Assembly (NCBI GenBank): GCA_035510465.1
Contig: DATKHC010000021.1
Span: forward strand, 130,876-194,875
Source of the DNA: Candidatus Saccharimonadales bacterium
GTDB taxonomy: Bacteria > Patescibacteriota > Saccharimonadia > Saccharimonadales > DATKHC01
Direction of reading: 5' to 3'
Length of the DNA stretch: 64,000 nt
Below the pieces are notes generated by a model that searched no databases, was not told where the DNA came from, and worked only from the letters and a program-made list of their open reading frames with translations. Within the stretch, counting starts at the first letter, position 1, and every line of letters starts with the position of its first letter. The position numbers and the translations under genes were made by a program. This document shows positions 25,172 through 40,956 of the stretch, piece after piece.

Positions 25172-25226
25172 GACGTAGCACATAATAAATTATGCTTTTC
25201 TGGAGCTAGGTCATAGCGCTTATGCT

Positions 25227-25329
25227 TGGTGCAGCATATGTGACGCATTTCAAACATCTGCTATTGAAAAGTTTGGCGATATTAAACTTGGCTAAGCTCT
25301 TTGGATTATCGGCTAGTTTGCTTGATTAG
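25227..25329 (+). repeat. Relic att junction B (core TGGTGCAG plus frameshifted recombinase tail)
   Basis: Reads WCSICDAFQTSAIEKFGDIKLG*, then in another frame AKLFGLSASLLD*. This is homologous to the intact tail at 33341..33460. Confidence 0.55.
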
Positions 25330-25338
25330 GGTTCGACT

Positions 25339-25722: not shown

Positions 25723-25984
25723 TATAATCAGCTACCCAGGCTTTTGCTGCCGCTTCTTTCAATGCTTGACCAGTTAAACCTTTTTTGTGACTAGGTATCT
25801 TTTTGGTAATTTCGTCTCGTAGCTTCTCAAAATCATCTACGGTAGTGCCTCCACCGATAACAACTTGTCGATTCTTGTCTAAAGTTAGGCTAACTTTTTG
25901 TCCAGATTTAAAACCAAGCGCTTTACGTAACGGTGCGGCAATCGTTATGGTACCCTTGCTTGTTATTGTTGAAGTATATTTCAT
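25715..25984 (-). CDS. AbrB/SpoVT (MazE-like) antitoxin
   Basis: 89 aa. SKGTITIAAPLRKALGFKSGQKVSL is a swapped-hairpin AbrB-type motif. Confidence 0.75.
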   Translation of the reverse strand: MKYTSTITSKGTITIAAPLRKALGFKSGQKVSLTLDKNRQVVIGGGTTVDDFEKLRDEITKKIPSHKKGLTGQALKEAAAKAWVADYSE

Positions 25985-26105
25985 ATCTTACATTATATAT
26001 AACGTATTACGACTTGTCAATTTCTTTCATAGTATAAGTAAACAAAAAGACCTTAACGGTCTCAAATGTTTGAATGCTCTCTGGACTAAAGACGTTTGGG
26101 TCTAA

Positions 26106-26210
26106 TTGGTGCAGCGTGTGGGTAAAAGTTTTCACCTTATTAGAGATGAGATAGCTCGTTGGAGAGAAATCTTGGAAGTCCCCTATCAAGAATATCTGCT
26201 TAATAACTAA
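26106..26210 (+). other. Detached C-terminal tail coding segment of LSR 31795..33357 (att junction D)
   Basis: In the recombinase frame (xTG GTG C) it is stop-free for 34 codons: LVQRVGKSFHLIRDEIARWREILEVPYQEYLLNN*. It is homologous to the ssrA-array tails (SPLIFDEIRRWRYLLWDDYIYY). Confidence 0.6.
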
Positions 26211-26236
26211 GAGCTGGGAGTTACACTCATATCATT

Positions 26237-26677
26237 ATGGAGAATAGAGACACAACAAAGCAACAGCTAATCAGCAATCAACATTCTAGTGTTATGGGTC
26301 GTCCAAGAAGAATAACTGAGGGTGACACCTATTATCTAATTGAGCTGTTCAAAAAGGGCTATACAGTGACAATAGCCTGTCGTAAAGCTGGAATACCAAG
26401 CTCTACTTACTATGATGAGTTTGCAAGCAATGAAGACTTTTCGGACAAAGTAACAGCTGCTCAAGAAATAATGACAGTCCAGGCGACACGCATTATTAAG
26501 GGAGCATTGAGTAGGGGTGACTTGAAAACAGCCATGTGGTTTCTTGATAGACAAGATAGGCGTGAGAGAAATGCTCAACGAGCAAAAGAGTATCGTTTGG
26601 TAAAAAAGCTAACTGTCACCAAGTCTTACAAAGAAACACAGTCAGTTGAGCTTGAGATAGATACTGTTACAGATTAG
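26237..26677 (+). CDS. HTH DNA-binding protein (element regulator or terminase-small-subunit-like)
   Basis: 146 aa. YYLIELFKKGYTVTIACRKAGIPSSTYYDEF is an HTH-like segment. Confidence 0.45.
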   Translation: MENRDTTKQQLISNQHSSVMGRPRRITEGDTYYLIELFKKGYTVTIACRKAGIPSSTYYDEFASNEDFSDKVTAAQEIMTVQATRIIKGALSRGDLKTAMWFLDRQDRRERNAQRAKEYRLVKKLTVTKSYKETQSVELEIDTVTD

Positions 26678-26678
26678 G

Positions 26679-27284
26679 TTATTTTCTTTTAAGTGCTATG
26701 GTAAACCAATCCGTTTTGCCAATTTTTTGGTGAGCTTCGTGAACAGTAGTAAATGAGCTACCTGCAAGCTCTCTGATTAAGTCAATGTTATAGTAGTAAA
26801 ACATTCGTTCGCCGTACTCATCTTTTTTGGCCTCTTCAGTGTAAGTCTCACGCTCTTTGAGAGAGATATAAAATACACCGCCTGAGCGTAATGACTGAGC
26901 AGCTTTTTCAAAAACCTTTGGCAGGTCAGTTTTATTGGCATGAAGTAAAGACGCAAAGGCAAAGATAACATCTACATTTTGGGGGTAGTGATAGGTTAAG
27001 GCGTCTGCAACAACAAATGATGTGCTTGGTAAGTTTTTCTCAGCAATTTCTAGCAAACCCTTTGATGGGTCAAAGCCCTCATACCAACCTACACGCTTAA
27101 CTATCTCTATTGCGTCACGACCATCACCACAACCAATCTCTACTGCTCTAGCTGTATTATCAGCACCTGCAAGTTTAAGCCCAAGTTCAATATCATCAAC
27201 CCTTGCTCCAATACCTTTGAAGTATTTAGCCAAAGCCTGTGCTGAGCTGTCATAAGTCTTTATAGTTTGAGTGTTCCAGTCCAT
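26679..27284 (-). CDS. Class I SAM-dependent methyltransferase
   Basis: 201 aa with motif I VEIGCGDGRDA. No DPPY/NPPY-type DNA methyltransferase motif seen. Confidence 0.75.
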   Translation of the reverse strand: MDWNTQTIKTYDSSAQALAKYFKGIGARVDDIELGLKLAGADNTARAVEIGCGDGRDAIEIVKRVGWYEGFDPSKGLLEIAEKNLPSTSFVVADALTYHYPQNVDVIFAFASLLHANKTDLPKVFEKAAQSLRSGGVFYISLKERETYTEEAKKDEYGERMFYYYNIDLIRELAGSSFTTVHEAHQKIGKTDWFTIALKRK

Positions 27285-27307
27285 TGATATGAGTATATAA
27301 CAGATGT

Positions 27308-29044
27308 TTAAGTTTGGTCGTGCTTAAAATACGACTTCATAAGTCTTTTGGTGTGTTTTTCAAAATCACTCATTAGTGACTTATTAAGCGGTATTTTTAT
27401 GCCCTGAGAATATAGGTGGTTTTTGAAGCTAAAATCATTGTTTATATCAGCCTTTGAAACCTTTTGAGAGTAGTCAATAAGTAACTGCTCAATGTCGTCT
27501 TTGGTCATTTCGGTTGCCATAGCTTCAAGAAACTCCACTTCCTCAATGGTTATGTAGATAAACGGCAGCAAATATGGCTCGTTGAACTTTACTCCATTAG
27601 CCCTTAACATCTTTTGATAGAACATATAGTGAAATGCCTCAGCAGGTAGGTAGTCAGACACTATTAAGATTGGTAGTATCTTACGCTTGCCAATACTTTC
27701 TTTTAGCACAAACTTGCCATCAATAATGTCCTTAGCGTGGCTGACGGCCTGAACAATGCCTTTCTTCTTGCCAAAACACTGTCCAAACGGAGTTGCTAAA
27801 TCTTGCTCGTTACCAGTAACTGTTGCCTTGTAAGATAAGTGAATAGATTTTTCTTCAAATAGTAAAATGCTTTGCTTACCCTCATAGATACCATCAGCCC
27901 TTTTGCTTTTGTCTTCAGCAACTCTACGATAGCCAGCCCCCAAGATTTTTTTAAGACTTGTGTCTGCATAATGTTCAAATGCTTCGCCCCACAAGCTCGG
28001 CAAGAGGTTGTATTGCTTGGTAAGACCCTTATCTCTCAAGTAGTCGGAGACAATCATATAAGCACCCTCAGTAGTTTTTGAGACAAGATACTCTGGTGAT
28101 GGTGCAGCAAGCAGGTGGTCAGCAACTTCAACTAGCGGAAACTTGCGAAGAAAAAGGTAGTTATAGTCGTAAATATCTTTATTGCTCAGAACGCCAAGCG
28201 ACCAAGAGTATATAGCTGCAAAGTCTTTGGGTGAAAATGTGAGCAGTTTGTATAGTTTTTCAAGATTAGCTTGAGTGACTTTGACTTCTTTGAAGTGTGT
28301 TCTTTTATCTATGTACCAGTCTTGGTCTAAGTTGAAGTCTTCTTTTTTTATTCCCCACCGCATAGACAACATTGTGCCAATGTCATAGTAGAGCTTAAGG
28401 CTCAAACCAGTTGCCTCTTTGAAATACTTACTGAAGCCAAAGTCACTATGGTGAGCTGCTAGGTAGTTGATTATTTTTAAGTGCCTATACAGGGGGTTTG
28501 GAAACTTTTCTTCTACTGTAAAGACCAACCGCCTGAACATAAACTCTCTTATCTTGATACGACTGTAATCAGCAGGTACTACTAAGGTTGATGGCGTAAA
28601 GTAATTTGCGTCAATATAGTCTGTCAGGCTCAGTAAGATTTTTGCAATCTCTGGTGTTAGTTCAGGACTAATCAGCTTGCCACCTTTTGTCGGACAGCTC
28701 TCAAGTGCAAGTTTCAAGAAAAGCAGAGCCGAGTGTTTTGAAAATAAGCCCCAACTGTCTGTGGCTTCATTGCGAACTACCGCTTTACTGAGAAGCTTAA
28801 CAAAGGCGTCTCTTTCTTCTTTGTTATCGTACAACGACCTGATGATGTTTCGCTGACCTAAGTTAAGATTTTTTGGGCCACCTGAAGTATGAAATAAGAT
28901 AATTCCGAGTTTTGTAGAAAACTCTAGTAGTCCGTTCAGGTCATAATCTTTGAGTGCCTTTCGGATTTCATCAAGCGACATACCCTGAGAGCCATATATC
29001 TCACGATAGCCTATTGAAGTAATGCGGTATTCGTTTGTACTCAT
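27308..29044 (-). CDS. Hypothetical 578-aa protein with a possible PD-(D/E)xK nuclease core
   Basis: Clean long ORF. The segment RADGIYEGKQSILLFEEKSIH fits D..(E)xK spacing. Function is speculative. Confidence 0.55.
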   Translation of the reverse strand: MSTNEYRITSIGYREIYGSQGMSLDEIRKALKDYDLNGLLEFSTKLGIILFHTSGGPKNLNLGQRNIIRSLYDNKEERDAFVKLLSKAVVRNEATDSWGLFSKHSALLFLKLALESCPTKGGKLISPELTPEIAKILLSLTDYIDANYFTPSTLVVPADYSRIKIREFMFRRLVFTVEEKFPNPLYRHLKIINYLAAHHSDFGFSKYFKEATGLSLKLYYDIGTMLSMRWGIKKEDFNLDQDWYIDKRTHFKEVKVTQANLEKLYKLLTFSPKDFAAIYSWSLGVLSNKDIYDYNYLFLRKFPLVEVADHLLAAPSPEYLVSKTTEGAYMIVSDYLRDKGLTKQYNLLPSLWGEAFEHYADTSLKKILGAGYRRVAEDKSKRADGIYEGKQSILLFEEKSIHLSYKATVTGNEQDLATPFGQCFGKKKGIVQAVSHAKDIIDGKFVLKESIGKRKILPILIVSDYLPAEAFHYMFYQKMLRANGVKFNEPYLLPFIYITIEEVEFLEAMATEMTKDDIEQLLIDYSQKVSKADINNDFSFKNHLYSQGIKIPLNKSLMSDFEKHTKRLMKSYFKHDQT

Positions 29045-29307
29045 ACTACCTACATTATATCTCTGCTACACCTTACAAGTGCTATAATTTCAGCAACGCC
29101 CAAAGCGTTGTAACAATTTGGTATGACCTAACCCCAAGCATTTGTTTGGGTATGGTCGTAAATCCTAATCAGAGCCTTGAGCTAGTTGTTCAGGTATCTG
29201 ATTAGGTCATAGTCCGAAAGGTCTATGGGTGGCCGCAAGGTCGCCGCCTGGCAGCTAGCTCTGTTGTTTTCTGTCAGGCTAACTAACAAAGTCTGAAAGG
29301 AGACAAT

Positions 29308-29982
29308 GTGTCATTATTCAAAAAAGCACTCAATGTTACACCAGCCTATCAAGCTGCAAAGTTAGGCTCTAAGCTAAGTCAGCAACATAAACAGCAAAAC
29401 CAAGAAAAGGCAGTGGCAGCACAATCGGCTCAACCAGTTGAAGCTGCTCAACCTAAGCCAAAAATCAAAAAACTAAGTTTTACTTACTCAAAATACTTAG
29501 GCGGTCACTCTAAGCTTGGCAAAGCTCGTCAGGGCAATCTTTATCTGACAGATGAGAAAATTGGTGTTGGCACATTCGGCCCAAGCCATTCTGCTTTACT
29601 TTGGACAGATGTTGCCAGCGTAGATGTAAGTGGTGAACAAGTAAGTAAGTCAAAGATTGGAGCAACTCTAGTATTCGGTGTGTTCGGTGGTTTGGCAGCA
29701 AAGGGTACAAAAAACCAAGCAGCAATAATTATTCACACCAAAGACAACGAAGTTGCATATTACCAGATAGATAAAGTAAGCCAATTAGAGGCTAAGGCTA
29801 AAATTACGCCCTTACTTCACGCTGTTGGTGTACCACTGAGTGATGAAACAGCACAGCAGCCTCAAGCACCTCAAGTCAATGATGTTACAGAGCAACTAAC
29901 ACAGCTCTCTAAGCTCAAGGAGCAAGGCATATTGACTGAGGCAGAGTTTACTGCCAAGAAGAAGCAGTTACTCGGCTTGTAG
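29308..29982 (+). CDS. SHOCT-domain protein
   Basis: GTG start with SD aaggag upstream. C-terminal LSKLKEQGILTEAEFTAKKKQLLGL is the SHOCT motif. Confidence 0.7.
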   Translation: MSLFKKALNVTPAYQAAKLGSKLSQQHKQQNQEKAVAAQSAQPVEAAQPKPKIKKLSFTYSKYLGGHSKLGKARQGNLYLTDEKIGVGTFGPSHSALLWTDVASVDVSGEQVSKSKIGATLVFGVFGGLAAKGTKNQAAIIIHTKDNEVAYYQIDKVSQLEAKAKITPLLHAVGVPLSDETAQQPQAPQVNDVTEQLTQLSKLKEQGILTEAEFTAKKKQLLGL

Positions 29983-29991
29983 GGGTTGAAT

Positions 29992-30765
29992 ATGAAAATA
30001 TATGATAATTTCAAGAACAAAATCAAAGGCGTTGTTAGGTTATTAGATAAAAGGTACAGAGGCTTCCCAGTAGGCGTATTGGTTGGTATAGCCATAGTTG
30101 CAGGTACTTCGGCTTATGCAGCACCAATGCTTCTTAGTAGTAAGCCTGTAAGCAAGACCACAGACAGTAGCTCATCAGCCCAGCACCTGACACAAAGCAA
30201 TAACCCTAAGCAGCCTAACAATACTTCAAACAGCACCAACACAGGCACGACTACGCCCACTAACCAGTCAGGCAGCACCACCTCATCAAACTCAAAGTCC
30301 AGTAGTTCGCCAACAAGTAGCAGCTCGTCTTCAAGCTCAACAAATACGCCAGCGTCAAACACACCTACAAAGCCAACCCCTACGATTACAGGCATTTCTG
30401 TCGTCACATCATCAGGCGGTCAAACAGTGACAGTAAACTACCCTGTCTGTGATTTTCAGTCTATCAACAGTGGCACACCAGAGACTTGCTATCACTATGT
30501 ACCTCTGCCGTTCAGCCTAGTAGCAAAATACTCAGACGGCTCTACTGCACCTCTATCATGGTCAGACGCTACTGAGACATCACTTAGTTACGATATACCG
30601 AGACTGTTCAGTGTAGACGCTTCAAACAACACATTGCTAGAGGGCAACGGACTTCAATACTACAACTACCCTATGAACAGCACCGTTCCAATGAACATTA
30701 CATATCAGAGTTGGACTTACACCGAATACATCAATGTCATAATAAACAGTCTTTGGGGTAGTTGA
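29992..30765 (+). CDS. Membrane-anchored S/T-rich surface protein
   Basis: TM VGVLVGIAIVAGTSAYAAP followed by a long S/T/N-rich linker. The track begins at TTG 29986. Confidence 0.65.
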   Translation: MKIYDNFKNKIKGVVRLLDKRYRGFPVGVLVGIAIVAGTSAYAAPMLLSSKPVSKTTDSSSSAQHLTQSNNPKQPNNTSNSTNTGTTTPTNQSGSTTSSNSKSSSSPTSSSSSSSSTNTPASNTPTKPTPTITGISVVTSSGGQTVTVNYPVCDFQSINSGTPETCYHYVPLPFSLVAKYSDGSTAPLSWSDATETSLSYDIPRLFSVDASNNTLLEGNGLQYYNYPMNSTVPMNITYQSWTYTEYINVIINSLWGS

Positions 30766-30810
30766 TAAAGAAAGCTCAGTTGTTCAGCTAAAAAATTGTA
30801 TAGTTTTACT

Positions 30811-31476
30811 ATGACAAAGCGAAAAGCTAGTGTCTGGCAACGAGCCATGTACCTAACAAGTAAGCCAGACTTCATAGATGATATTTTAGCCATTAGAGAA
30901 AAGTTTAGTCTCCCCACTGACGGTTTTATCTCTGACGAGGCTGTTGAAGCATGGAGAGAAAAGTATATCTATTACAAACCAGTTAGCCCTGAAGATGATA
31001 TTGAAGACGGTATTGACCTAGCTGTTGCTCGGATTATTACAAAACCAGGGTATGAGCTATCGCCTGGCTGGCATAACTCTGTCAAACGCTTTTTGCTACT
31101 AAACAATGTTGAAGATATGCAACTACCAGTGAGTATTGGCAATCAGTTGGTTGAAGATAAAGTGACCAAACAGCTCACAATCCATATTGTCGTCTCCGAA
31201 GATACCAGCAAGCAAGATTACATTGATGAGTGGGAGAACATTGAGCGAATAAGAAGTATGCGACAACTAAAAACTCCTAAACAAAGGCGACTTGCACACC
31301 CTCATATACTTAGGCGTAAAAAATTGGCTTATGAGACTTGGGTGATAACTGGCTCTTATGAAGAGGCTGCAAAAGCAGTTATAGCAAAGTACCCAAAAGA
31401 GGTTGAAGTAAAAGGCTACAATTCAGATAGTGCAAAAACTGATATATCTAACTTCATAAAGCAAGCAGGTATTTAG
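30811..31476 (+). CDS. Hypothetical protein
   Basis: ORF with ATG at 30811 (the track starts at TTG 30796). No motif recognised. Confidence 0.55.
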   Translation: MTKRKASVWQRAMYLTSKPDFIDDILAIREKFSLPTDGFISDEAVEAWREKYIYYKPVSPEDDIEDGIDLAVARIITKPGYELSPGWHNSVKRFLLLNNVEDMQLPVSIGNQLVEDKVTKQLTIHIVVSEDTSKQDYIDEWENIERIRSMRQLKTPKQRRLAHPHILRRKKLAYETWVITGSYEEAAKAVIAKYPKEVEVKGYNSDSAKTDISNFIKQAGI

Positions 31477-31528
31477 TGCTGGCTTAAATAAACTTACCTA
31501 GCAACTGTATGAGCGTAAGTTGTAGGGT

Positions 31529-31711
31529 ATGTCACTTGTTAGGTCTAAGCCATCAAGAAGCGTTGAGGTTGATGAGAAATCATTCAAGACTAAACGCAAA
31601 GAAGACGCTCTTGAGCTTGCTCAAATCTTATATGACATCTTCAAAGAAAAGCAGGCTAATGATAAACTTAAAAATGGACAAAACAATGCACAACAAATCA
31701 CAAACAGTTAG
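31529..31711 (+). CDS. Micro-ORF upstream of the LSR (60 aa), candidate accessory factor
   Basis: ..ALELAQILYDIFKE.. shares the helix motif seen at 15265 and 55444. Confidence 0.4.
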   Translation: MSLVRSKPSRSVEVDEKSFKTKRKEDALELAQILYDIFKEKQANDKLKNGQNNAQQITNS

Positions 31712-31794
31712 TTTATTAGTATCAGTGGGAGCTTTCGTAGGCCTTGCATTGGCCTTGTCCAGGAAGCTCCCTCTTATATTAGTAAGGAGCTGTT

Positions 31795-33357
31795 ATGCCT
31801 AAACAAATACTAGCCATAGCATTGTGCAGAGTATCTTCTCTTGAGCAGTTACAAAGTCACAGTCTTGATAATCAAAAAGACAAAGTATTAAGAGCTGCTG
31901 AGGTACTTGGAGCAACCATACCTGCTGATGGTATATGGTCAGGTCATGTATCAAGTAAAAAGGGCGTGAACTATGACCGCAAAGACCTCAAGGAAATGCT
32001 TGAATACTGTAAGAAAACTCCAAATGTTAAGTACCTTATAGTTCAAGAGGTAGATAGGTTTATGAGAAGCCCTGATGAGCAGGTGTATTTCCAGGTCAAG
32101 TTTAGTGAAGAGGTGGGAGTTAAGATATGGTATGCCGATAAGCCTGAGCTTAATGAAGATAATATATATGCTGGCCTGATGAGGTACATGGAGGGGTTTC
32201 GTGCTGCTGGCAGCAATGATGAACGCCAAAGAAAATCAATCACAGGACAAACAAACGCCCTTAACGCTGGAAGATACCCATTTGCTCCAAAGCCAGGCTA
32301 TATTAGGGGGCATATTCCTGGCATACAAGAGCTTCACCCTGTTAGAGGCAAAATACTACAAGATACTTTGATTAGCATTGTTACTAAACGATTATCACCC
32401 ACTCAAGCTCTCATTAAGCTAAATGATAGCGAGTATATGCAGGGTCATTCTCCATACAAAATGGACAAGTTCAGGACTATCGTCACAGACCCTTTTTATG
32501 CTGGAATTGTTGAAATTGATAAACAAGTACAAGTCCGAAACGAAAACGGCTTGCATGAGCCACTGATAACCAAAGAGCAACACAACAAGCTACTTGAGAT
32601 TATGAACGCTAAGAAAAAGGTGCAAGCTGGCCCAAGAAAAGGCGGTAACCCTGAATACCCATTATCAAACCAAGTAAATTGTATTGAGTGCAGAGAGGCA
32701 AGGAATGGCCGACTTGTGGGCTACAAACATGGTAACGGCAAACCTAACTCAACGCTCGTGTATCACAAGTATCGCTGTCGGTCTTGTGCTAGATACCAGT
32801 CCAGAGAGGAACTTCACCCAAAAATTGCTCAAAAGTTCAATGAGAGGCCAGTCACTGATGGCGGTAAGCAAGACCTGTTAGAGGCGTTGAAGATAGTTTG
32901 GGAGCAAAATGAAAGCCAAGTAGAACAAGACATAAACCGCTTGCAACATAGCATTGACCAGCTTGATAGCTTTATTGAAGAGCGAGTAAATGCTGCAACT
33001 GACCCAAAGTACAGTGCGATTGCAACAGACATCATGAAGTTGGTAGAGAAAAAGAAGACCGAACGCTCAAAGTTACAAGAGCAGCTTTCAAACCTTACTA
33101 CAACGGCTGATGAAGATAATGAACGGTTTCTTGATTTTGCCTTTGATTATCTTAACGACATAGGTAAAAACTTCTTCAGCCCTGATGTGTCACTTGAAAA
33201 CAGATTGAGGTGTAAACAAGCTATATTTCCAGCAGGATTTTGGGTTGATAAAAATAGAAAAGTTTACACCCCTGAAATAAGCTATCTTTACAGATTGGCG
33301 GAAAAGAAAAAGGACGCCAGAGCGTCCAATAATTCCCTAATGGTGCGGCATAGCTGA
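31795..33357 (+). CDS. Large serine recombinase (integrated, C-terminally truncated form)
   Basis: 520 aa. AIALCRVSSLEQ motif, zinc ribbon CIECREA..YRCRSC and a coiled coil. It ends SLMVRHS*, 3 codons after the TGGTGC core. Confidence 0.9.
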   Translation: MPKQILAIALCRVSSLEQLQSHSLDNQKDKVLRAAEVLGATIPADGIWSGHVSSKKGVNYDRKDLKEMLEYCKKTPNVKYLIVQEVDRFMRSPDEQVYFQVKFSEEVGVKIWYADKPELNEDNIYAGLMRYMEGFRAAGSNDERQRKSITGQTNALNAGRYPFAPKPGYIRGHIPGIQELHPVRGKILQDTLISIVTKRLSPTQALIKLNDSEYMQGHSPYKMDKFRTIVTDPFYAGIVEIDKQVQVRNENGLHEPLITKEQHNKLLEIMNAKKKVQAGPRKGGNPEYPLSNQVNCIECREARNGRLVGYKHGNGKPNSTLVYHKYRCRSCARYQSREELHPKIAQKFNERPVTDGGKQDLLEALKIVWEQNESQVEQDINRLQHSIDQLDSFIEERVNAATDPKYSAIATDIMKLVEKKKTERSKLQEQLSNLTTTADEDNERFLDFAFDYLNDIGKNFFSPDVSLENRLRCKQAIFPAGFWVDKNRKVYTPEISYLYRLAEKKKDARASNNSLMVRHS

Positions 33358-33460
33358 CACATTGCAAACATCTGCAATAGAGGCTATTAACGATTATAAA
33401 CTAAAGCATCTAGCTGAACTTTTTGGCTTATCAGGCGAACTATTATCAATTAAAAAGTAA
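33341..33460 (+). other. Detached C-terminal tail coding segment of LSR 39220..40716 (att junction C)
   Basis: In the TGG TGC frame used by LSR 39220..40716 (..NLWCE*) it reads 39 codons: WCGIADTLQTSAIEAINDYKLKHLAELFGLSGELLSIKK*. Confidence 0.55.
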
Positions 33461-33464
33461 GTAA

Positions 33465-34250
33465 TTAGTTTACTCCACAGTTAATTTTATCAGCATAAAA
33501 ATCCTCAATTAGCCTCACGTCTTCATCTATATATTCAAGCATCATATGCAAGTCAACATCTAGCTCTCCATCAAATACGTTTTCCATTGCTCTAGGTGCA
33601 ATAACAGAGGCAGAGTTTGGATTATTATGCAGCGTCGTTGCATGGGCTGCCGCACATCTATATTTTTCATAGTACCGCTCTGCTGTAACCTGAACGACAT
33701 GATGATGATTGACTAAGTGGAGTATTAAGTTTCTATCACGACAGCCATGAAATGCTTCTAAAAAACGCCATGCGTTTAATAAACGCCATTCAGTTGTTAA
33801 TGTTGCATCTTTAGCCGCTCTGTATAGATGAAGTATTCTGGGCGGATTTTTTGGTTCATTAAGATAGTCTAGGTTAACTACAAATGCCTTACCCCCATTC
33901 ATAACATGCGAATCGGCGTCGTGAAACCATGCACCATCAAGCACATAGACCTTGTCTTTATACTTGCAAGTTATAGGTTTACTAAGATAGGCATCCGTCT
34001 GCGATGAGGCACATAGTACCGTTAATATCTCCTCAGTAAATATCAATGCCTGCCTCAATATAGTATTCTCTATAGCATTACTTCTTACGTTTATAGTTAC
34101 TTGTATGCCTTTTACCCCAGGGTATCTCTGCCCAGCCTCATCAACATTAAAATAGGTTGTATCACGAATAAATTTACCGCTGTCAAAGGTTGCGTTGCCA
34201 TCAATAGAAGCACTAATGTTTAATCCATAAAACTCTACCTCAGCAATCAT
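33465..34250 (-). CDS. Hypothetical protein with a possible HEPN-like Rx4H motif
   Basis: 261 aa containing ..EKYRCAAAHATT.. (R-x4-H). Otherwise unrecognised. Confidence 0.5.
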   Translation of the reverse strand: MIAEVEFYGLNISASIDGNATFDSGKFIRDTTYFNVDEAGQRYPGVKGIQVTINVRSNAIENTILRQALIFTEEILTVLCASSQTDAYLSKPITCKYKDKVYVLDGAWFHDADSHVMNGGKAFVVNLDYLNEPKNPPRILHLYRAAKDATLTTEWRLLNAWRFLEAFHGCRDRNLILHLVNHHHVVQVTAERYYEKYRCAAAHATTLHNNPNSASVIAPRAMENVFDGELDVDLHMMLEYIDEDVRLIEDFYADKINCGVN

Positions 34251-34391
34251 ATATTTACGTTACGCCTAAAAATATTTACTATCAATGTATCTAAGTTGTT
34301 TAGAGGATACTTATGCAAATAACAGAAAAAGAATATCAAGGCGAGCTATTAAGTAGCATGGATTAGCCTCGGATAATTCAAGCTCTTTTTA

Positions 34392-35723
34392 TCAATGTTT
34401 GTATAGTACCATTTGCCAGTGAACACCTCCTGGATTGATTGGTATTTCGCATAAATGGCCTGGTTTTTGTTGGTTGCACTGGCTAACATAATATTGATAG
34501 TTTAGATTTGGCAATGGTGCAATCTTCCACGAACTAGGTATTCCCATAGCCACAAACAAGACAATGAGACAGATGCAGACAATACGCATGATTATACTTT
34601 TAGCCGCCAACGCTACCCAGAGCAAGGTTACCAGCCAAACAAAAATAGGTATAAACCAATATCTCTGGCCTGCACCTGGGTCAATAAGAACTCCCCACAC
34701 ATCGACACCAGCTAAGGGGTGCAGTGAGAAAAGCACGGACACAAAAAGCAGTAATGAGTATAGATTTGCATACCTGAGCCAGCTCGGCCCTTTCCTGATG
34801 GCATAGGCAATGATAGCCAGAGCCACACCTAAGGCAATCCATAAATGAAGGCTGTTGTAGAAGTAAAAGACGTGTTTTACTCCAAAGATACTACCAGCGA
34901 ACACTTGCCCAACCATCATTTTTATCACATCAATCCATACTAGATGGTGGTAGTAACCTCGTTGGCCAGGCTCAATTATAAATAAGCTAATTAACTGAAG
35001 TAATGACGTGACGATAAGTACACCAAGATTTAACAGTGAATGACGTAGCCTGGTGTTAAACCATACAAGAAAAGCGATGATTACTAACGGAAAGGTAATT
35101 GGCCCTGTTAAGCCTGCAATCATAAGTACTACAACATCAAAAGCAACCCATAGTCGGCTTGTTGGTTTACTGGCAATCAGTAGTAAAAATGCGGCTATGG
35201 CAAAATGCCATTGTACGTTCGCTAGATTTACGAACACCTCCTGAGAGTTAATAGCTACATACAGTAGGCTAACCACTATAGCAATTAGCTGATACCTGAC
35301 AATTGGCTGCAAGCGTTTACTATTAAGTATAAATATAGGCAGCAATTGGCACGCTAGTGCTGATAAATTAAAAAAGAGAGGTGCATAGTTAAGCGGCAAG
35401 AATGTCGCTATATATGCTATTATCCGTTGAAATATAGAGAATGTTCCCGAATATGGTAAAAATAAGGTTGTACGAAGTCCATGATTGTAAGCACTCTGAA
35501 ACCAAGTAACACCATCTTCGGCCCAAAACTGTGCATGCGTAAAGGCTTCTGGTTTTCTCAAAATAATTACCAGAGTGCAAAGTGCCAGTACGCCGACTGT
35601 CAAAAGCAGCGGCCGTGAGGACAATTTTTTATCAAATTTGTCAATTTTTCTCTGTAGTTTAGTCAACCAATAGCCTGACCGTCCCCCTATGGTCTTACGA
35701 CTGGTTATTGCAGAACGCCTCAC
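34392..35723 (-). CDS. Large polytopic membrane protein (possible GT-C-type glycosyltransferase or polymerase)
   Basis: 443 aa with at least 10 hydrophobic helices. GTG start. Function inferred only from topology. Confidence 0.6.
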   Translation of the reverse strand: MRRSAITSRKTIGGRSGYWLTKLQRKIDKFDKKLSSRPLLLTVGVLALCTLVIILRKPEAFTHAQFWAEDGVTWFQSAYNHGLRTTLFLPYSGTFSIFQRIIAYIATFLPLNYAPLFFNLSALACQLLPIFILNSKRLQPIVRYQLIAIVVSLLYVAINSQEVFVNLANVQWHFAIAAFLLLIASKPTSRLWVAFDVVVLMIAGLTGPITFPLVIIAFLVWFNTRLRHSLLNLGVLIVTSLLQLISLFIIEPGQRGYYHHLVWIDVIKMMVGQVFAGSIFGVKHVFYFYNSLHLWIALGVALAIIAYAIRKGPSWLRYANLYSLLLFVSVLFSLHPLAGVDVWGVLIDPGAGQRYWFIPIFVWLVTLLWVALAAKSIIMRIVCICLIVLFVAMGIPSSWKIAPLPNLNYQYYVSQCNQQKPGHLCEIPINPGGVHWQMVLYKH

Positions 35724-35894
35724 AGTTCATCTCTGGTGTAATCTTTTAGTCTTTGAGCCATCACATCTTTCTGCACTTATCAGCCAGCTTTATATAAGCA
35801 AGCGTTATGTTATCAAATCTAGCACACCGCCTCTGCTATTGCTAACAGAATGTTAGTGGTTTGCCTGTTGCTATAAGGATAACGTTGAATTAGC

Positions 35895-36128
35895 ATGAAG
35901 CGAAATTCAACAGAGTTCAAAAACATGCGGATAAGACTTGGTAAACGTATTCAAGAGATACGCATTGAAAAAGGCATGACCCAAGAAAGTCTATCCGCTA
36001 TTTCGGGATTAGACAGAGTTTCAATTGGTTACATTGAACAGGGCAAACGTGCTGCAAGATTAAGCACTTTGCTGATACTCGCTAAAAGTCTCAAGGTAAA
36101 AATGGCTGACTTTTTTGACGGTTTCTAA
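35895..36128 (+). CDS. XRE-family HTH regulator
   Basis: 77 aa. MTQESLSAISGLDRVSIGYIEQGKRAARLSTL. Confidence 0.8.
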   Translation: MKRNSTEFKNMRIRLGKRIQEIRIEKGMTQESLSAISGLDRVSIGYIEQGKRAARLSTLLILAKSLKVKMADFFDGF

Positions 36129-36334
36129 TTCTGACTTTTCTTTAGCAACGTAGCAATATCTTCACGACGGTAACGTCTATCTCGGCGTGTGCCAAATCGC
36201 ACCGCCGTGAGGTAGCCTTTTTTGTCCCACGCTCTTAATGTATTTGGATGACAATTCAAAATCTCACTCGCTTGTTTGAGAGTTAGCAACTTAGGTTCTT
36301 TTTTCCCAGATTGTGGCATACTATAACTATACAC
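36125..36334 (-). CDS. Excisionase/MerR-type HTH protein
   Basis: 69 aa. LLTLKQASEILNCHPNTLRAWDKKGYLTAVRFGTRRDRRY. Confidence 0.7.
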   Translation of the reverse strand: MYSYSMPQSGKKEPKLLTLKQASEILNCHPNTLRAWDKKGYLTAVRFGTRRDRRYRREDIATLLKKSQN

Positions 36335-36359
36335 TACTTAACGGTGTGAGAGCGATGTG

Positions 36360-37415
36360 ATGACAAGGCCAATTGATAAGTTGCTGGAATTATATGAAAT
36401 GCTATCTGACCTACGGCTGGTTACGCCAGGTGCTAAGTTAATTCAGCTCAACCCGATTAAAGATATTGATGCTAAGAAGTTTGACCGTCAGACGCTTGAA
36501 TATCTGTTTGAGCTATTAGAAAGTGACTACAAGGTTATCACTGTACATACACGACCTGATTATAAGAATGAGTTTCATTACCGTTTTGAAATAAATGACA
36601 ACTTTGACGAAGTGTACAATCGTATTTACGTATCAGCAAAATTCGGTGTCGGTAACCTGGACTGGACATCACTTCTCAGAGTTTACGAAGTAGCACTAGA
36701 TATTAGCAGCCAGTTGAAATTCACGACATCGGACACTGTAACGCTTATAATCCCGCCTGTATCAAGTCGTTTTTTAGCATCTCTCGCTTTTGATACAATT
36801 CCAGCGTTTCAGGCTGGTTACGAAAACGGCATCAAGTTTCTGCAAGAACAAGGTGTACTCGCCTCATATAAAACTTATTATGACCTGGATAGAAGCTATC
36901 GTGTCACAGTTAATCACATCCATCGTCCTAAGTTTGATAGGCTGATACGATTGCTGGCAATCAAGCATAAAGAGTTAGCGGGTGTTTACAAGCAAAGTCA
37001 ACCCCCACCTACAGAGGGACAGCCAGACAAAAAAAGAAACGAACAGCTCAAGAAACTTGAAACTATTTATAATGACGCTAAAGACGGAAACAAAATATCG
37101 GGGCAAGAAACAAATGATGTGCACCCTCTAGTAAGGTTTGACACTAAGACAAGTGTGCTCGTATTCGGCGATAAAACGTGTGATATACCAGACGAAACGC
37201 TAGAGCATTATATCTGTAAGTTCGCATTTAAGAACCGCCGTGTTGCTGCAAAAGAGGATGACATATTAGAGAAGACCGTAAAAAGCCAAGACAGCCAACG
37301 TGCTGTTTATGATGCGATGCTTAGGGTAAATAAAAAGGCTCGTGAGCAACTTGGTATTGAAAAACTACTAAAATATAAAGCCGCAAAAATACGAATTGAT
37401 AAAAAGTATCAGTAG
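36360..37415 (+). CDS. Hypothetical protein
   Basis: About 351 aa with no motif recognised. Confidence 0.6.
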   Translation: MTRPIDKLLELYEMLSDLRLVTPGAKLIQLNPIKDIDAKKFDRQTLEYLFELLESDYKVITVHTRPDYKNEFHYRFEINDNFDEVYNRIYVSAKFGVGNLDWTSLLRVYEVALDISSQLKFTTSDTVTLIIPPVSSRFLASLAFDTIPAFQAGYENGIKFLQEQGVLASYKTYYDLDRSYRVTVNHIHRPKFDRLIRLLAIKHKELAGVYKQSQPPPTEGQPDKKRNEQLKKLETIYNDAKDGNKISGQETNDVHPLVRFDTKTSVLVFGDKTCDIPDETLEHYICKFAFKNRRVAAKEDDILEKTVKSQDSQRAVYDAMLRVNKKAREQLGIEKLLKYKAAKIRIDKKYQ

Positions 37416-37500
37416 TAAACTGTGAGTGAAGTGTGAGCCAGTTAGCGTCTAAGTTGGGTCATTAGCCCTAAAAGTAGTCTTACGTTGTAAGGCTATTTTT

Positions 37501-37725
37501 ATGTCTACAAATAACCAACCACAACCAACAGAGCCACAAGAACAAGCCGCAAATAAAGGCGTGGCTGTTAAGTTGAGTGCGGAAGCACTACATAACTTGG
37601 CTGGCTGGTTTGATGTGCTCATTCAAATGGACTTAGCGCAAAAAGTACGTAATGAAATAAGGAGTAAAAACGATGAAAAGGCTGATATTCAAGATGCTTC
37701 AAGTAAGTCTAAGGAAGTGCATTGA
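37501..37725 (+). CDS. Small hypothetical protein
   Basis: 74 aa. Contains ..LHNLAGWFDVLIQMD.., loosely like the LSR-associated micro-ORFs. Confidence 0.45.
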   Translation: MSTNNQPQPTEPQEQAANKGVAVKLSAEALHNLAGWFDVLIQMDLAQKVRNEIRSKNDEKADIQDASSKSKEVH

Positions 37726-37788
37726 CTGGCTAATGACCTGTTGGCTATGGGTTAATAAGCACGAAAAATCCTTAGAGGAATGTAAAAG

Positions 37789-38100
37789 ATGAAAGTAAGC
37801 GAAGTAAACATTGTGCCGATAAAGGCGGTTGATGGCTTAGTTGCCTTTGCCAGTTGTGTAGTAAATAACGAGCTGTATCTTGGCTCTCTAGGCGTGCATC
37901 GCCGCTTAGACGGTTCTGGTTATCGTATAATCTACCCGACTAAACATATCGGGAAACGTGAGCTGAACTACTACAATCCAATAACTAAGGAAGCAGGTAG
38001 CGTAATTGAGCAAGCAATCGTTGCTAAGTGCCGTGAACTTTTTGAAAGAAGTGATGAAAATTATGGTAGACACAGTAAAACTACTACTGCCAATCAATGA
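37789..38100 (+). CDS. spoVG: SpoVG-family protein
   Basis: 103 aa. MKVSEVNIVPIKAVDGLVAFASCVVNNELYLGSLGVHRRLDGSGYRIIYPTK follows the SpoVG pattern. Confidence 0.65.
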   Translation: MKVSEVNIVPIKAVDGLVAFASCVVNNELYLGSLGVHRRLDGSGYRIIYPTKHIGKRELNYYNPITKEAGSVIEQAIVAKCRELFERSDENYGRHSKTTTANQ

Positions 38101-39181
38101 GCCGATGATACTGAGCAAAGGGGCGTTTGAGCCGCTAACAGTCGGGCAACTGGTAGGCACTTGGGGTACAAGTAGAACATACCTGAACCCCTCGCCTACC
38201 TACGCCAAAATAGGTAAATATATGCCAAGATTGACACTTTACAGACGACCAACCAAGACAATGGGTATTGTTTATCAGTTATCGGTTGAGTTTTCAGCTC
38301 CAAAGATGCTATTCATGCAGAACTTTGATGAGCTGACGGAAGCAGACTTTGAGCCATTACTGAAAGCATTGCGGGAAGCACTGCATGAACTGACAGGTCA
38401 TCAGTTTTTCCCTCATCAGTTGGCTAACGCCGTTGTAGCCTCATGGCATCCGTCTAAGAACATAGTGTTTTTAGACTACACTTCATGCCAGACGATACTA
38501 AACACTATCGCCAAATTAGATATAAGCCGTATCTACGACTTACAGCGTACCAACTTCCGTGACGGGCATGTTGTACATATACACTGCAACTCACTAGATA
38601 TTGCCTTTTACGATAAGATGGCTGATTTACGCCGAGGCAAAGTAAGTGAAAAACGGGCATTTGAAAATGATAATGCCATTCAACTGAACTTACTTGAGCC
38701 GTTGCAGCACATTAGCCCGATTGAGGTACTTCGCTATGAGGTACGTTTTGTTGGCAGAAAAGCTATCAAGCGAGCTTACCCCGATATTGAAAATCAAACA
38801 TTTAAGGCATTGTTCAAGAAGCAACTAAGCCAAGATATATTGCTTAAGCATTGGAATAAAATAACTAGCTCCATAGATATGTTGTCTCTGGATGAACGCC
38901 GTCCTTACGAGCTGTTCCAAAACTACCTGATTGACAACCCAGACGCTACACCACAGGCATCTTTAGCAGCAACAGCGGCATTGCTCATAAACGGGCAAGA
39001 GGGCATAAGGAACTTCCGTAACCTGCTTGAGGCTCGCTATAACCCAGATGCTTGGTATCGCATCAAAAAAACGCTCAAGACACCGCAGCAGCACCGCTAT
39101 ACACACTTCCAGCATGTAGATGAAGCACTAAAACAATTCACGCCCACTCGCATGAGTGATTATCTAAAATATATTGAATAA
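38054..39181 (+). CDS. Hypothetical protein, possible replication initiator (weak)
   Basis: About 375 aa. The start is uncertain (ATG 38054 or 38063; the track uses 38006). The N-terminus VDTVKLLLP is reminiscent of phage/plasmid Rep proteins. Functional confidence is low. Confidence 0.55.
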   Translation: MKIMVDTVKLLLPINEPMILSKGAFEPLTVGQLVGTWGTSRTYLNPSPTYAKIGKYMPRLTLYRRPTKTMGIVYQLSVEFSAPKMLFMQNFDELTEADFEPLLKALREALHELTGHQFFPHQLANAVVASWHPSKNIVFLDYTSCQTILNTIAKLDISRIYDLQRTNFRDGHVVHIHCNSLDIAFYDKMADLRRGKVSEKRAFENDNAIQLNLLEPLQHISPIEVLRYEVRFVGRKAIKRAYPDIENQTFKALFKKQLSQDILLKHWNKITSSIDMLSLDERRPYELFQNYLIDNPDATPQASLAATAALLINGQEGIRNFRNLLEARYNPDAWYRIKKTLKTPQQHRYTHFQHVDEALKQFTPTRMSDYLKYIE

Positions 39182-39219
39182 ACTAGTAACTTATGTTAAG
39201 TTAATAAGGAGTAACCATT

Positions 39220-40716
39220 ATGGAAACTAAAGTAATCTTAATCGCCAGAGTTTCAGACAAAGAGCAACGTAAAGCGTTGCCCGCTCAAAAACAAAGACTT
39301 GAAAACTATGCCAATGATGTACTAAATAAGCCTTTCAAGTATTACCAGTTTGACGAAAGTGCCTATAAAGACGACAGACAAAAGTTCGCCTCGCTGATTG
39401 AGGATAAAATCCAATCACTAAAACACCCTGCCATTATCGTATTTGATAAGATTGACCGCTTTACCCGTGACGCATCCCAACGTGAGGTACGGATAATAAG
39501 TACTTTAGTAGAAAAAGGTAGTATTGAAATACACTTCCCGTCTGACAACCTATTCATTACCAAAAACTCACCTGCAACTGATTTGTTCAGGCTCGGTATC
39601 GGTATGCTACTGGCAAAATACTACTCAGATGCCAGTCGGGATAATGTCAAACGCCGATTTGAACAGATGCTAACCGATGGTATTTGGGTACACCGTGCCC
39701 CTATTGGCTACAAGAACATCATTGTAGGCGGCACACCACAAAGACCAATTAAAGGCATTGAGGTTGATGACGAAAAATCCCCTCACATCTTGAAAGCCTT
39801 TGAGATGAGAGCACTTGGCACACCCTACGAGATAATCGCTAGGCAGCTCAATGAGGACGGTTTCCGAACCAATGCGGGTAATAGAGCAACCAGAGGCTAT
39901 ATTGAACGAACACTAAACAACAAGTTTTATTATGGCAAGATGGTACATGGCGACAGAGAATACGACCATCATTACCCGCCAATCGTTAGCCAAGCACTGT
40001 TCAGAGAGAGCCAACGGATTAGAGAGCACCGCAAGCATGAAAAGACCAAGTACGACAGTAAAGACTACGCTTTCAAGAAAATCGTAAAGTGCGGCAAGTG
40101 TGGACGCTCAGTATCGCCGTTTAAGGCTCGTAACACAGTTTACTTGAGATGTGCCAACAACCATTGCGTTAATCCAAATACAGCCGTATCGCTTATAATA
40201 GACGGCGTGACTGATGACGTTTGTAATGTAGATGTACCTGAAAACTGGATTGACCAAGTTATTGCCGAGTTACGCAAACGCCACGATAACCAGCAGCTAT
40301 ACTTCACACAGAACATTGAAACTGCCCGTGCTGAGTACGACAAAATCAAAGAAAAGATGCGTAAGTTGTACTACGACCTACTTGAGGGACGTATTACTCA
40401 GCCTTTCCATGACGAAATTGCAAATGAACTTGAAGCAAGACAGCAGGAACTTAACGATAGGCTCAAGATGCTAACAAGTGATAATAAGTCATTCCAAGTG
40501 ACTGCTTCTTATCTGTTGGACTTGGCTCAGCGAGCCGAAAAGCTGTTCAAAGAGAGCGATGAGGGTTTGCAGCAAAAACTTTTAGACTACGTACTTTCAA
40601 ACATTGAACTTAACGACAAAAAGTTGTCATATATACTAAACGAACCCTTTAGAACGATAGTTGAGGCAAAGAAAAAAGCCCTTTCAGGCTCAAATCCAAA
40701 CTTATGGTGCGAGTGA
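39220..40716 (+). CDS. Large serine recombinase; stop codon lies inside the tRNA-Gly 3' end
   Basis: 498 aa. LIARVSDKEQ motif, zinc ribbon CGKCGRSV..LRCANNHC and a coiled coil. It ends ..NPNLWCE*, with TGG TGC GAG TGA being the antisense of the tRNA CCA end and acceptor stem. Confidence 0.9.
   Translation: METKVILIARVSDKEQRKALPAQKQRLENYANDVLNKPFKYYQFDESAYKDDRQKFASLIEDKIQSLKHPAIIVFDKIDRFTRDASQREVRIISTLVEKGSIEIHFPSDNLFITKNSPATDLFRLGIGMLLAKYYSDASRDNVKRRFEQMLTDGIWVHRAPIGYKNIIVGGTPQRPIKGIEVDDEKSPHILKAFEMRALGTPYEIIARQLNEDGFRTNAGNRATRGYIERTLNNKFYYGKMVHGDREYDHHYPPIVSQALFRESQRIREHRKHEKTKYDSKDYAFKKIVKCGKCGRSVSPFKARNTVYLRCANNHCVNPNTAVSLIIDGVTDDVCNVDVPENWIDQVIAELRKRHDNQQLYFTQNIETARAEYDKIKEKMRKLYYDLLEGRITQPFHDEIANELEARQQELNDRLKMLTSDNKSFQVTASYLLDLAQRAEKLFKESDEGLQQKLLDYVLSNIELNDKKLSYILNEPFRTIVEAKKKALSGSNPNLWCE
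40668..40690 (-). terminator. Putative terminator of tRNA-Gly, embedded antisense in the LSR coding sequence
   Basis: Minus sense: AGCC-tgaaag-GGCT followed by TTTTTCTTTG, 14 nt after the tRNA 3' end. The T-run is the antisense of Lys codons (..AKKKAL..). The stem is weak. Confidence 0.4.
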
Positions 40717-40780
40717 CGGGATTCAAACCCGTGGCCTCTTCCTTGGCAAGGAAGCGCTCTATCAGCTGAGCTACACTCGC
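40705..40780 (-). tRNA. tRNA-Gly (anticodon GCC), CCA encoded
   Basis: Manual fold: acceptor GCGAGTG/CACTCGC, anticodon stem CTTCC/GGAAG with loop TTGCCAA, T arm with GGTTTGAATCC. Confidence 0.9.
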
Positions 40781-40880: not shown

Positions 40881-40956
40881 GGCGCTTTAGCTCAGTTGGT
40901 AGAGCAGAGGCTTGAAGAGCCTTGTGTCCCCAGTTCGAGTCTGGGAGGCGCCACCA
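40881..40956 (+). tRNA. tRNA-Phe (anticodon GAA), CCA encoded
   Basis: Manual fold: acceptor GGCGCTT/AGGCGCC, anticodon stem GAGGC/GCCTT with loop TTGAAGA, T arm CCCAG-TTCGAGT-CTGGG. Confidence 0.9.

Follow-up and report, generated by a model that had tools for sequence, protein, structure and literature searches.

Integration of the Myxococcus phage Mx8 exchanges about 100 residues of its integrase. The passages on this phage in PMC6070905 (citing Tojo 1996 and Magrini 1999) place attP in the 3' part of the integrase gene; integration turns intP into intX, and the protein keeps its catalytic core and remains active with changed properties. In archaea, the "suicidal" SSV1-type integrases carry the recombination site in their own open reading frame (ORF), target a tRNA gene, and are partitioned on integration and restored on excision (PMC8371274); according to the same 2021 review, self-disrupting recombinases are known only from archaea. 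We analyzed a 64,000-nucleotide stretch of contig DATKHC010000021.1 from Candidatus Saccharimonadales (hereafter the window), in which the gene of a large serine recombinase (LSR), designated LSR-c, ends inside tRNA-Gly(GCC), and a conserved 37-residue sequence lies at the far end of the 7.36-kb insertion that carries it, element C. The sequence data support the view that the LSR-c gene was interrupted by its own integration and that this tail is its displaced 3' end. Among bacterial serine recombinases, LSR-c thus corresponds to Mx8 IntP/IntX and to the split integrases of SSV type in archaea.

The LSR-c protein and that of the neighboring LSR gene, LSR-b, are on record as HUD07302.1 and HUD07293.1 (Candidatus Saccharimonadales metagenome-assembled genome, MAG). 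LSR-c ended in ..NPNLWCE*, encoded by AAC TTA TGG TGC GAG TGA, and TGG TGC GAG TGA lay inside tRNA-Gly. The 3' end of the tRNA reads TGGTGCGAG on the antisense strand and was overlapped by these end codons. A preliminary description made from the sequence alone had reported that LSR-c stops inside tRNA-Gly, antisense to its CCA end and acceptor stem, and that an intact 39-codon tail in the same phase begins at 33341; the ORF coordinates and the translation agreed with both statements. The tail was located 7.36 kb upstream of the LSR-c end, directly after the end of LSR-b. Its frame, which begins TGG TGC GGC, reads WCGIADTLQTSAIEAINDYKLKHLAELFGLSGELLSIKK* in the codon phase of LSR-c, with an in-frame TAA directly 5' and no start codon. 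The 8-bp core ATGGTGCG was common to 33340 and 40704 and corresponds to codons W496-C497, giving 498 residues when the gene is integrated and 534 when it is reconstituted. Across loci, the shared core was 6 bp (TGGTGC), and the crossover must fall inside it. The 29-nt P'-arm pattern TGGTGCNNNATNNNTGACNCATTNCAAAC was found exactly three times in the window (at 24402, 25227, and 33341), with a chance expectation of zero.

We fetched 79 genome and 79 metagenome loci of LSR-c relatives (about 160 Saccharibacteria loci). Five homologues (P0003, P0013, P0018, P0042, and P0075) carried a contiguous tail with the pattern WC.IVDA.QT...DYKLKHL.E.F.LSG.L, and in about 20 genome loci a search with a tail profile detected the tail in complete form on the strand of the LSR, 6.5-11.4 kb upstream of it. 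When the P' arm was searched for at the DNA level, which is independent of the open frame, 44 of the 46 W-C-type sites in the loci were followed by 35-40 open codons, and the only two broken tails were the outer copies in this window (25227 and 24402). A random 25-codon window in the same loci was open 34% of the time. Proportions of synonymous (pS) and nonsynonymous (pN) differences were calculated for 25 unique tails by the Nei-Gojobori method. Codons 1-10 gave a pS of 0.28 and a pN of 0.15, a synonymous constraint as expected for a protein-binding half-site, the presumed P' arm of attP. Codons 11-35 gave a pS of 0.74 (saturated) and a pN of 0.28, a signature that supports translated sequence under purifying selection. 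In addition, tail identity followed LSR body identity across 24 distinct elements (Spearman 0.77-0.82; Mantel r 0.74, p 2e-4). An in-frame stop was present at most 40 codons upstream in 32 of 43 tails, with an ATG in between in only one of those 32, indicating that the tails are not translatable on their own; eight of the 43 were contiguous with an LSR ORF. The contiguous homologues, the purifying selection on the tail, and the co-evolution of tail and LSR over this distance support the split-gene architecture first put forward in the preliminary description.

No Pfam or Rfam family matched the tail, and it had no ssrA-like ending. The second half of the tail, KLKHLAELFGLSGELL, has some likeness to the first helix and turn that HTH_17-type proteins share, the 69-residue protein of the element itself among them, but this resemblance was not significant. 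In the AlphaFold2 (AF2) model described below, the tail was predicted as three short helices (predicted local distance difference test, pLDDT, 66-76).

The domains, fold, and attachment features of the LSR-c enzyme are those of a member of the LSR (serine integrase) family. Pfam searches identified Resolvase (PF00239, residues 5-148, E 4.8e-13) and Recombinase (PF07508, E 5.7e-14), together with a weak zinc ribbon match (PF13408, E 0.0027) under the curated cut-off. The four cysteines of the zinc ribbon in the LSR-c family (Cys291, Cys294, Cys311, and Cys316) were invariant. R10, V11, S12, and D13, which include the catalytic Ser, were invariant in sets of 14 and of 94 homologues. The AF2 model was made of P0003, a full-length homologue (mean pLDDT 82), and showed the LSR domain order with a long two-helix coiled coil (helices 342-389 and 395-446). 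A Foldseek search of the PDB with this model returned the SPbeta integrase (E 1e-15), phiC31 (3e-11), and LI integrase (4e-9), with Bxb1 also among the top matches. Sequence identity of the LSR-c family model to the solved integrases was 11-16%, and a profile search of PDB sequences gave a weak match to the catalytic domain alone, so that confirmation of the LSR fold depended on the Foldseek search. The phiC31, Bxb1, SPbeta SprA, and Listeria A118/LI integrases share the domain order and fold of LSR-c and likewise use short att sites with few identical central bases. The short shared core and hybrid att junctions found here are as in LSR systems, and the hybrids were verified against the site of contig L164, which holds only the neighboring element B. 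In LSR systems, reversal of the attP x attB reaction depends on a directionality factor (RDF), for which small genes of element C, the HTH_17 gene at 36125..36334 among them, are candidates by annotation.

These features make it probable that element C is an integrative element driven by an LSR with attP inside its own ORF, with the following architecture and life cycle. The attP site would consist of the core TGGTGC(G), read as Trp-Cys codons, a P arm formed by the approximately 15 codons before it, and a P' arm formed by the first 10 or so tail codons. Integration at the GCACCA-3' end of tRNA-Gly(GCC) would leave the tRNA intact, swap the sequence downstream of it for the antisense of the LSR 3' codons (hairpin and T-run terminator), and run the LSR ORF into the tRNA, where it would stop after one codon, shortening the protein from 534 to 498 residues. 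The tail, parked 7.36 kb away without a promoter or start codon, would be translated only at a re-formed P-P' junction, either in the excised circle (534 residues) or when a neighbor arrives on the tRNA side in a tandem stack. The predicted attP junction 40703|33349 is AACTTATGGTGCGGCATAGCTGAC, written also as ...CCAAACTTATGGTGCGGCATAGCTGACAC..., and the predicted emptied site is TCCCTAATGGTGCGAGTGACGGG, written also as ...AATTCCCTAATGGTGCGAGTGACGGGATTC.... We infer both the circular stage of element C and a difference in activity between the two isoforms. Since the gene has its full length only in the non-integrated element, our best guess, a tentative one drawn by analogy with Mx8, is that the tail may serve integration or its control. 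It is also conceivable, if rather doubtful, that the isoform set by the DNA state acts as a directionality or commitment switch, the 534-residue form being integration-competent or self-limiting and the 498-residue form excision-competent or quiescent; because each attL-like site of a stack has a tail, the tRNA-proximal LSR could then excise composites of variable size and have its gene completed every time, resembling integron-like cassette capture at the tRNA genes of genome-reduced Patescibacteria. If the switch reading is true, the same 45 nt encode a protein linker and a tRNA transcription terminator.

The nearest functional analogues of LSR-c are Mx8 IntP/IntX and the integrases of SSV type. 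As far as the passages cited above describe Mx8, both IntP/IntX and LSR-c gain an altered C-terminus by integration, but the Mx8 enzyme is a tyrosine recombinase, whereas LSR-c is a large serine recombinase. LSR-c further differs from Mx8 in its crossover at the CCA tip of the tRNA, in a P arm that doubles as the terminator of the tRNA, and in the displacement of a conserved module of 37 residues. The SSV-type integrases are also tyrosine recombinases; there, the split separates essential parts and the provirus has no working integrase. In contrast, LSR-c is bacterial and serine-type and loses a C-terminal tail only, all LSR domains staying in the 498-residue form from which 37 residues are removed. 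Because LSR-c has a resolvase/LSR fold and a catalytic Ser instead of tyrosine-recombinase chemistry, it works like the Mx8/SSV class but is not a member of it.

Two other arrangements are related in part. In a 2013 study by Broussard et al., the attP of cluster G, N, and P mycobacteriophages reportedly lies near the 3' end of the repressor gene, and integration at a tRNA is said to remove a C-terminal degradation tag. Both there and here, the isoforms report whether the DNA is integrated or free; however, the mycobacteriophages split a repressor and use a tyrosine integrase, whereas here the integrase itself is split. In Streptococcus, ICESt1/St3 elements and their recombinase-less remnants, cis-mobilizable elements (CIMEs), are stacked at tRNA or fda sites; they are bounded by att sites, the newest lies next to the target, and their integrases are of the tyrosine type. 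Unlike in those stacks, the internal junctions here are of the attP-like P-P' kind, at which the upstream element regains an integrase gene of full length.

To our knowledge, characterized large serine integrases have attP outside the integrase ORF and target protein-coding genes. On serine integrases that insert at a t(m)RNA gene, the survey by Mageeney et al. (2020) states that such use "has not been reported previously" (PMC7192596). Our literature search, whose coverage was incomplete and which is no proof of absence, returned neither an LSR with attP in its own ORF nor LSR elements in Patescibacteria. The present findings show that serine integrases can specialize on tRNA and tmRNA genes at their CCA tip, a class of targets thought to be used by tyrosine integrases nearly without exception (PMC7192596), and that integrase genes which interrupt themselves also occur outside archaea (cf. 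PMC8371274). Serine integrases are prized for genome engineering because the direction of their reaction is controlled by a separate factor. If, in this natural family, the DNA rearrangement itself rewrites the C-terminus of the enzyme, this would be a new coupling of recombinase activity to integration state.

The limits of element C were determined by comparison with related contigs. A protein at least 90% identical to LSR-b (P0126) led to L164 and L165, from two assemblies, in which an LSR-b region 91% identical to window positions 30762..33348 ran directly into tRNA-Gly, followed by tRNA-Phe, tRNA-Val, and a homologue of the right-flank gene. Their alignment to the window broke at 33348 and restarted at 40701, the overlap being the core only. 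Because these relatives show the state with element B alone, element C occupies exactly the interval given in Table 1; the site compared is the attR of element B and not a virgin attB, and no virgin attB of the same species was found among the fetched loci when sought via the flanking genes. The flanking gene was only 66% identical between the window and L164/L165, compared with 91% for the LSR-b end of element B, indicating that element B was recently mobile between genomes and had therefore been excised.

The order of B followed by C was also found in the closed chromosome OY970350 (L016), and C-C' tandems were present in OY969928 (L013) and L096. The layout in which the LSR-b end, the core, and the LSR-c tail follow one another is explained by insertion of element C into the attR of the earlier element B, and the newest element adjoins the tRNA, in accordance with the decay gradient of the tails (33341 intact, 25227 frameshifted, and 24402 truncated, the last open for just 13 codons). 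The preliminary description had proposed serial insertion at a single tRNA and had suggested a comparison with strains lacking a layer; the direct joining of LSR-b to tRNA-Gly in L164 and L165 provided that comparison and agreed with the proposal. Its count of at least four insertions was too high: the three junctions define three layers (the remnant A, B, and C), and no fourth was found. Its description of two older, decayed tails was accurate as to the frameshift at 25227 and the truncation at 24402, but the copy at 25227 is not simply an older LSR-c tail; it is the left end of element B, whose LSR uses another frame.

Table 1. Features at the tRNA-Gly(GCC) locus, in coordinates of the window.
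Feature	Position	Strand	Evidence or remark
Layer A, 0.8-kb remnant or mini-unit	24402..25226	+	P' arm with 1 mismatch; one ORF, 24614..25171
Element B left end	25227..25329	+	P' arm with 0 mismatches; tail-like ORF broken by 8-nt deletion (frame shifted); element B spans 25227..33348
LSR-b, 520 residues, integrase of element B	31795..33357	+	Reads core as ATG GTG
Terminator-like hairpin GGACGCTCTGGCGTCC, then T-run	33302..33327	-	Antisense in LSR-b 3' codons
attL core of element C, ATGGTGCG	33340..33347	.	Also within final LSR-b codons
Putative displaced LSR-c 3' end, 39 codons and stop	33341..33460	+	WC from core, 37 residues tail-only
Putative P' arm of attP, TGGTGCGGCATAGCTGACACATTGCAAAC	33341..33369	.	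DNA-level conservation including synonymous sites
Element C, 7.36-kb insertion	33349..40712	+	Missing at exactly these limits in L164 and L165
Element C cargo gene	33465..34250	-	
Element C cargo gene, glucosyltransferase-like	34392..35723	-	
Element C HTH_3 gene	35895..36128		
Element C HTH_17/MerR gene	36125..36334	-	69-residue HTH_17-type protein
Element C conserved module, 5' of LSR-c	36357..37415; 37789..38100 (SpoVG-like); 38006..39181		
LSR-c, integrated truncated form, 498 residues	39220..40716	+	Translation, Pfam, AF2 model, Foldseek
Terminator-like hairpin GAGCCTGAAAGGGCTT, then T-run; putative P arm of attP	40666..40691	-	13 nt past tRNA CCA end
attR core, ATGGTGCG	40704..40711	.	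TGGTGC is antisense of tRNA GCACCA-3' end
tRNA-Gly(GCC), intact, B' half of target site	40705..40780	-	ARAGORN; Rfam 72 bits

Several observations weigh against the architecture and life cycle proposed above. No circular or excised form was seen, and the exact 534-residue protein was absent from a collection of 15 billion proteins. No relatives were found in IMG/VR viral contigs, so that there is no evidence of the element being a phage. Where a contiguous tail occurred on a long contig, it was always at a tandem junction (L013 and L096), and the short contigs with contiguous tails (L001-L005 and L134) were too short to tell a circle from a tandem. Intact tails were also present where the LSR of the same unit does not read them (the B-type element of L164, in which the TGA of the conserved P' motif ends the LSR-b frame, just as it does in L016 and in the window) or where the unit has no LSR (outer mini-units of L099, L012, L042, and L119), and these unread tails still had a pS of 0.6-0.8 compared with a pN of 0.3; a tail is thus not bound in any simple way to the LSR of its own unit. 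Since the 498-residue form keeps every recognized LSR domain, the tail may be dispensable for catalysis. Finally, the confidence of the AF2 model in the tail is moderate, with only five aligned sequences covering it, and the sequences used for the selection and co-evolution analyses are phylogenetically related, so that the counts overstate the number of independent cases. One reading that reconciles these points is that any attL-like site in a stack may pair with the tRNA-proximal attR; in a composite circle, the LSR nearest the tRNA would then be joined to the tail at the boundary of the excised block.

The tandem arrays in L013 and L096, the intact tails in LSR-less mini-units and in a B-type element, and the lack of any recorded excision junction of element C would all be explained if full-length LSR arose only at chromosomal tandem-stack junctions, circles were now rare or never formed, and tails were a module shared by neighbors, each completing the LSR of the element upstream of it. 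We consider this unlikely, because the LSR with which a tail co-evolves is the one at the opposite end of its own element and not that of a neighbor. Moreover, most elements occur singly. On the left of their tails stands a chromosomal terminator or a tRNA, in-frame stops precede them, and such tails would be unused; the 91%-identical B elements in genomes with 66%-identical flanks also point to recent horizontal movement, which requires excision. An artefact of assembly or binning, with repeats mis-joined at the tRNA, is a natural concern since the source is a MAG and tRNA-gene repeats are classic sites of mis-assembly. Nevertheless, it is scarcely credible here: more than 100 independent assemblies show the same architecture, the closed long-read chromosomes OY969928 and OY970350 among them, the B-C order is repeated in L016, and L164/L165 provide the exact empty-site counterpart.

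Two further explanations dispense with the tail as part of the LSR gene. If it were merely the P' half of attP, with a frame behind it that happened to be open, and if the LSR truly ended at WC(E/G)* with no protein ever made from beyond the core, this would agree with the observed conservation of the first 30 nt as DNA, synonymous sites included; the truncated protein does hold all LSR domains, and the post-core sequence is short and unconserved in the sister clades at tRNA-Asn, tRNA-Asp, and tRNA-Arg. However, an LSR half-site is about 25 bp, yet the difference between pS and pN is found in codons 11-35, where DYKLKHL.E.F.LSG.L persists while the DNA is saturated at synonymous sites. The identity of these codons also correlates with that of the LSR body, and the recurrence of 35-40 open codons at nearly every site stands against a chance of 0.34 per site, which makes a fortuitous frame very unlikely. 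A small independent gene, a cis-acting RNA, or a regulatory element, in each case without relation to the LSR, would fit the constant position of the tail beside the first cargo gene and its physical separation from the LSR in the integrated state. Against this, it has no start codon, a stop precedes it (immediately in the window and at a distance of up to 40 codons in most tails), its phase is without exception the W-C phase of the core, eight loci have it joined to an LSR ORF, and it matches no Rfam or Pfam family; we regard such an independent feature as extremely improbable. The displaced 3' end of the LSR-c gene remains our preferred interpretation of the tail.

The sequence upstream of the core has a predicted second function. 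The hairpin near the end of LSR-c lies antisense to the codons ..A-K-K-K-A-L-S-G-S-N-P-N-L before the core. On the tRNA strand, the hairpin and T-run begin 13 nt past the CCA end, at 40691..40676 for LSR-c and 33327..33312 for LSR-b. A hairpin and T-run 12-14 nt from the CCA end were detected in 76 of 116 unique LSR 3' ends, compared with 1 of 116 control windows placed 300 nt upstream, and the stems varied by lineage through paired changes (GAGCC/GGCTC, GGCTC/GAGCC, and AGGGTC/GACCCT). The native left arms in other genomes were terminator hairpins as well, or the next tRNA. These features indicate that the element brings a predicted replacement tRNA terminator, written antisense in the integrase gene. 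The hairpin in the LSR-b 3' codons was probably the tRNA terminator before element C came. A carried terminator may explain why attR, composed of an LSR end and the tRNA, is accepted as a target. Such a dual-coded terminator is a compact case of overlapping protein and RNA-signal constraints.

LSR-b had no BLASTP similarity to LSR-c. It ended in ..SLMVRHS*, reading across the core at 33340 in a frame other than that of the LSR-c tail, and its stop was a TGA that belongs to the element C P' arm, five codons past the core; the overlap of this junction with the last LSR-b codons, noted in the preliminary description, was therefore correct. LSR-b-type integrases in general read the core as (A/T)TG GTG (window 33341..33357; L016 2331..2347; L164 11543..11569), and their stop codon is supplied by the conserved TGA of the P' motif ATAG(C/T)TGAC or by the tRNA, so that integration alters only the last 3-5 residues. 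Two LSR families without detectable sequence similarity thus have the same core, tRNA target, and terminator-bearing P arm. Two ideas about the tail copy at 25227 were rejected. It cannot serve as a natural control for the decay of an unread tail, since the B-type element of L164 and the outer mini-units keep intact tails. A programmed frameshift at the AAG AAA AAG run, which would let LSR-b read the tail, was also discarded, because a TAA stands directly before TGG in the W-C frame and a -1 shift leads to the wrong frame.

The cargo of element B (25339..25984 and 26679..27284, both on the minus strand) included a PIN-domain toxin with a MazE/AbrB-type antitoxin and a methyltransferase matching PADLOC mad2 (E 8.6e-18), which suggests addiction or defence functions. 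The cargo and conserved module of element C gave almost no matches in Pfam, PHROGs, and PADLOC. Stacks of short units, distal to the full element, were found in L099 (229..3879, three in a row), L012 (2814 and 3504), L042 (1488 and 2565), and L119 (1144 and 3694), and at 24402..25226 in the window. Those in L099 were 0.85-1.4 kb long, and each combined one or two genes with a P' arm whose tail was intact and with an arm made up of an A-run and a hairpin. The short units had no recombinase and look like trans-mobilizable cassettes rather than random deletion remnants.

We know of few mobile elements described from Saccharibacteria. A search with reconstituted LSR-c returned 1351 relatives, from Saccharibacteria/Saccharimonadales wherever the source was named. 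Most were 497-500 residues long and stopped at W-C-(G/E), and some read on into the antisense of the tRNA (WCGLGDSNSWPLPWQGSALTTELNP...). In the genome set, the W codon TGG coincided with the CCA end of an opposite-strand tRNA in 57 of 84 LSR ends, the targets being tRNA-Gly(GCC) (37), tRNA-Asn (13), tRNA-Asp (3), tRNA-Arg (3), and tRNA-Gly(TCC) (1); in the 37 tRNA-Gly(GCC) loci, the W codon fell exactly on the first base of the tRNA annotation. The metagenome set gave the same target picture, most LSR ends coinciding with a tRNA CCA end. In Saccharibacteria, the LSR family is the mark of a widespread class of elements (6.5-11 kb) that carry cargo and form stacks. Sister clades (L050-L084 and L136-L161) ended in W-L, W-R, or W-Y and were located on tRNA-Asn(GTT), tRNA-Asp(GTC), tRNA-Arg (three anticodons), and tRNA-Gly(TCC); their P' arms kept a VDAL(Q/R)T-like motif without the conserved 35-residue tail.

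Five LSRs were present in the window. The fifth (55705..57321, plus strand, 538 residues) was 28% identical to LSR-b, and its end, ..AHLVELPEYC.., ran antisense into the 3' end of a tmRNA (57236..57632, minus strand; Rfam 71 bits, missed by ARAGORN) in the same layout as at tRNA-Gly. The tmRNA of L164 had no adjoining LSR, and L164 may therefore hold an empty tmRNA site. A 575-residue LSR (15411..17138, plus strand) read ..VVRGAGLEPASLLGKGF* into the antisense of tRNA-Leu(TAA) (17086..17171, minus strand). The remaining LSR (7360..8961, minus strand, 533 residues) was about 24% identical to LSR-c over residues 5-418. A copy of ATGGTGCG was present at 7135..7128 (minus strand), approximately 225 nt past its stop, with no tRNA detected there; this could be a decayed or a different kind of junction.

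Other features of the region were also recorded. The orphan structured LOOT RNA (Rfam RF03000, 56-85 bits) was detected at 29125..29245 (plus strand) in element B and at 54510..54623 (minus strand), about 1 kb upstream of the tmRNA-targeting LSR. It was also found inside elements at L164 7519..7637 and L013 16034..16159, and at L046 8189..8311, near or inside an LSR element. Among the components of these integrative elements, LOOT RNA seems to recur regularly. Beside tRNA-Gly, tRNA-Phe was inverted in the window (40881..40956, plus strand) relative to L164 (11650..11725, minus strand), L006, L012, and L016, a small inversion right beside the integration hotspot. Finally, a repeat of approximately 90-140 nt occurred four times within 2 kb (48733..48820, 49511..49639, 49994..50083, and 50518..50660); it matched one place in L164 (13998..14147) with 82-92% identity and was intergenic, in a dispersed or tandem arrangement.

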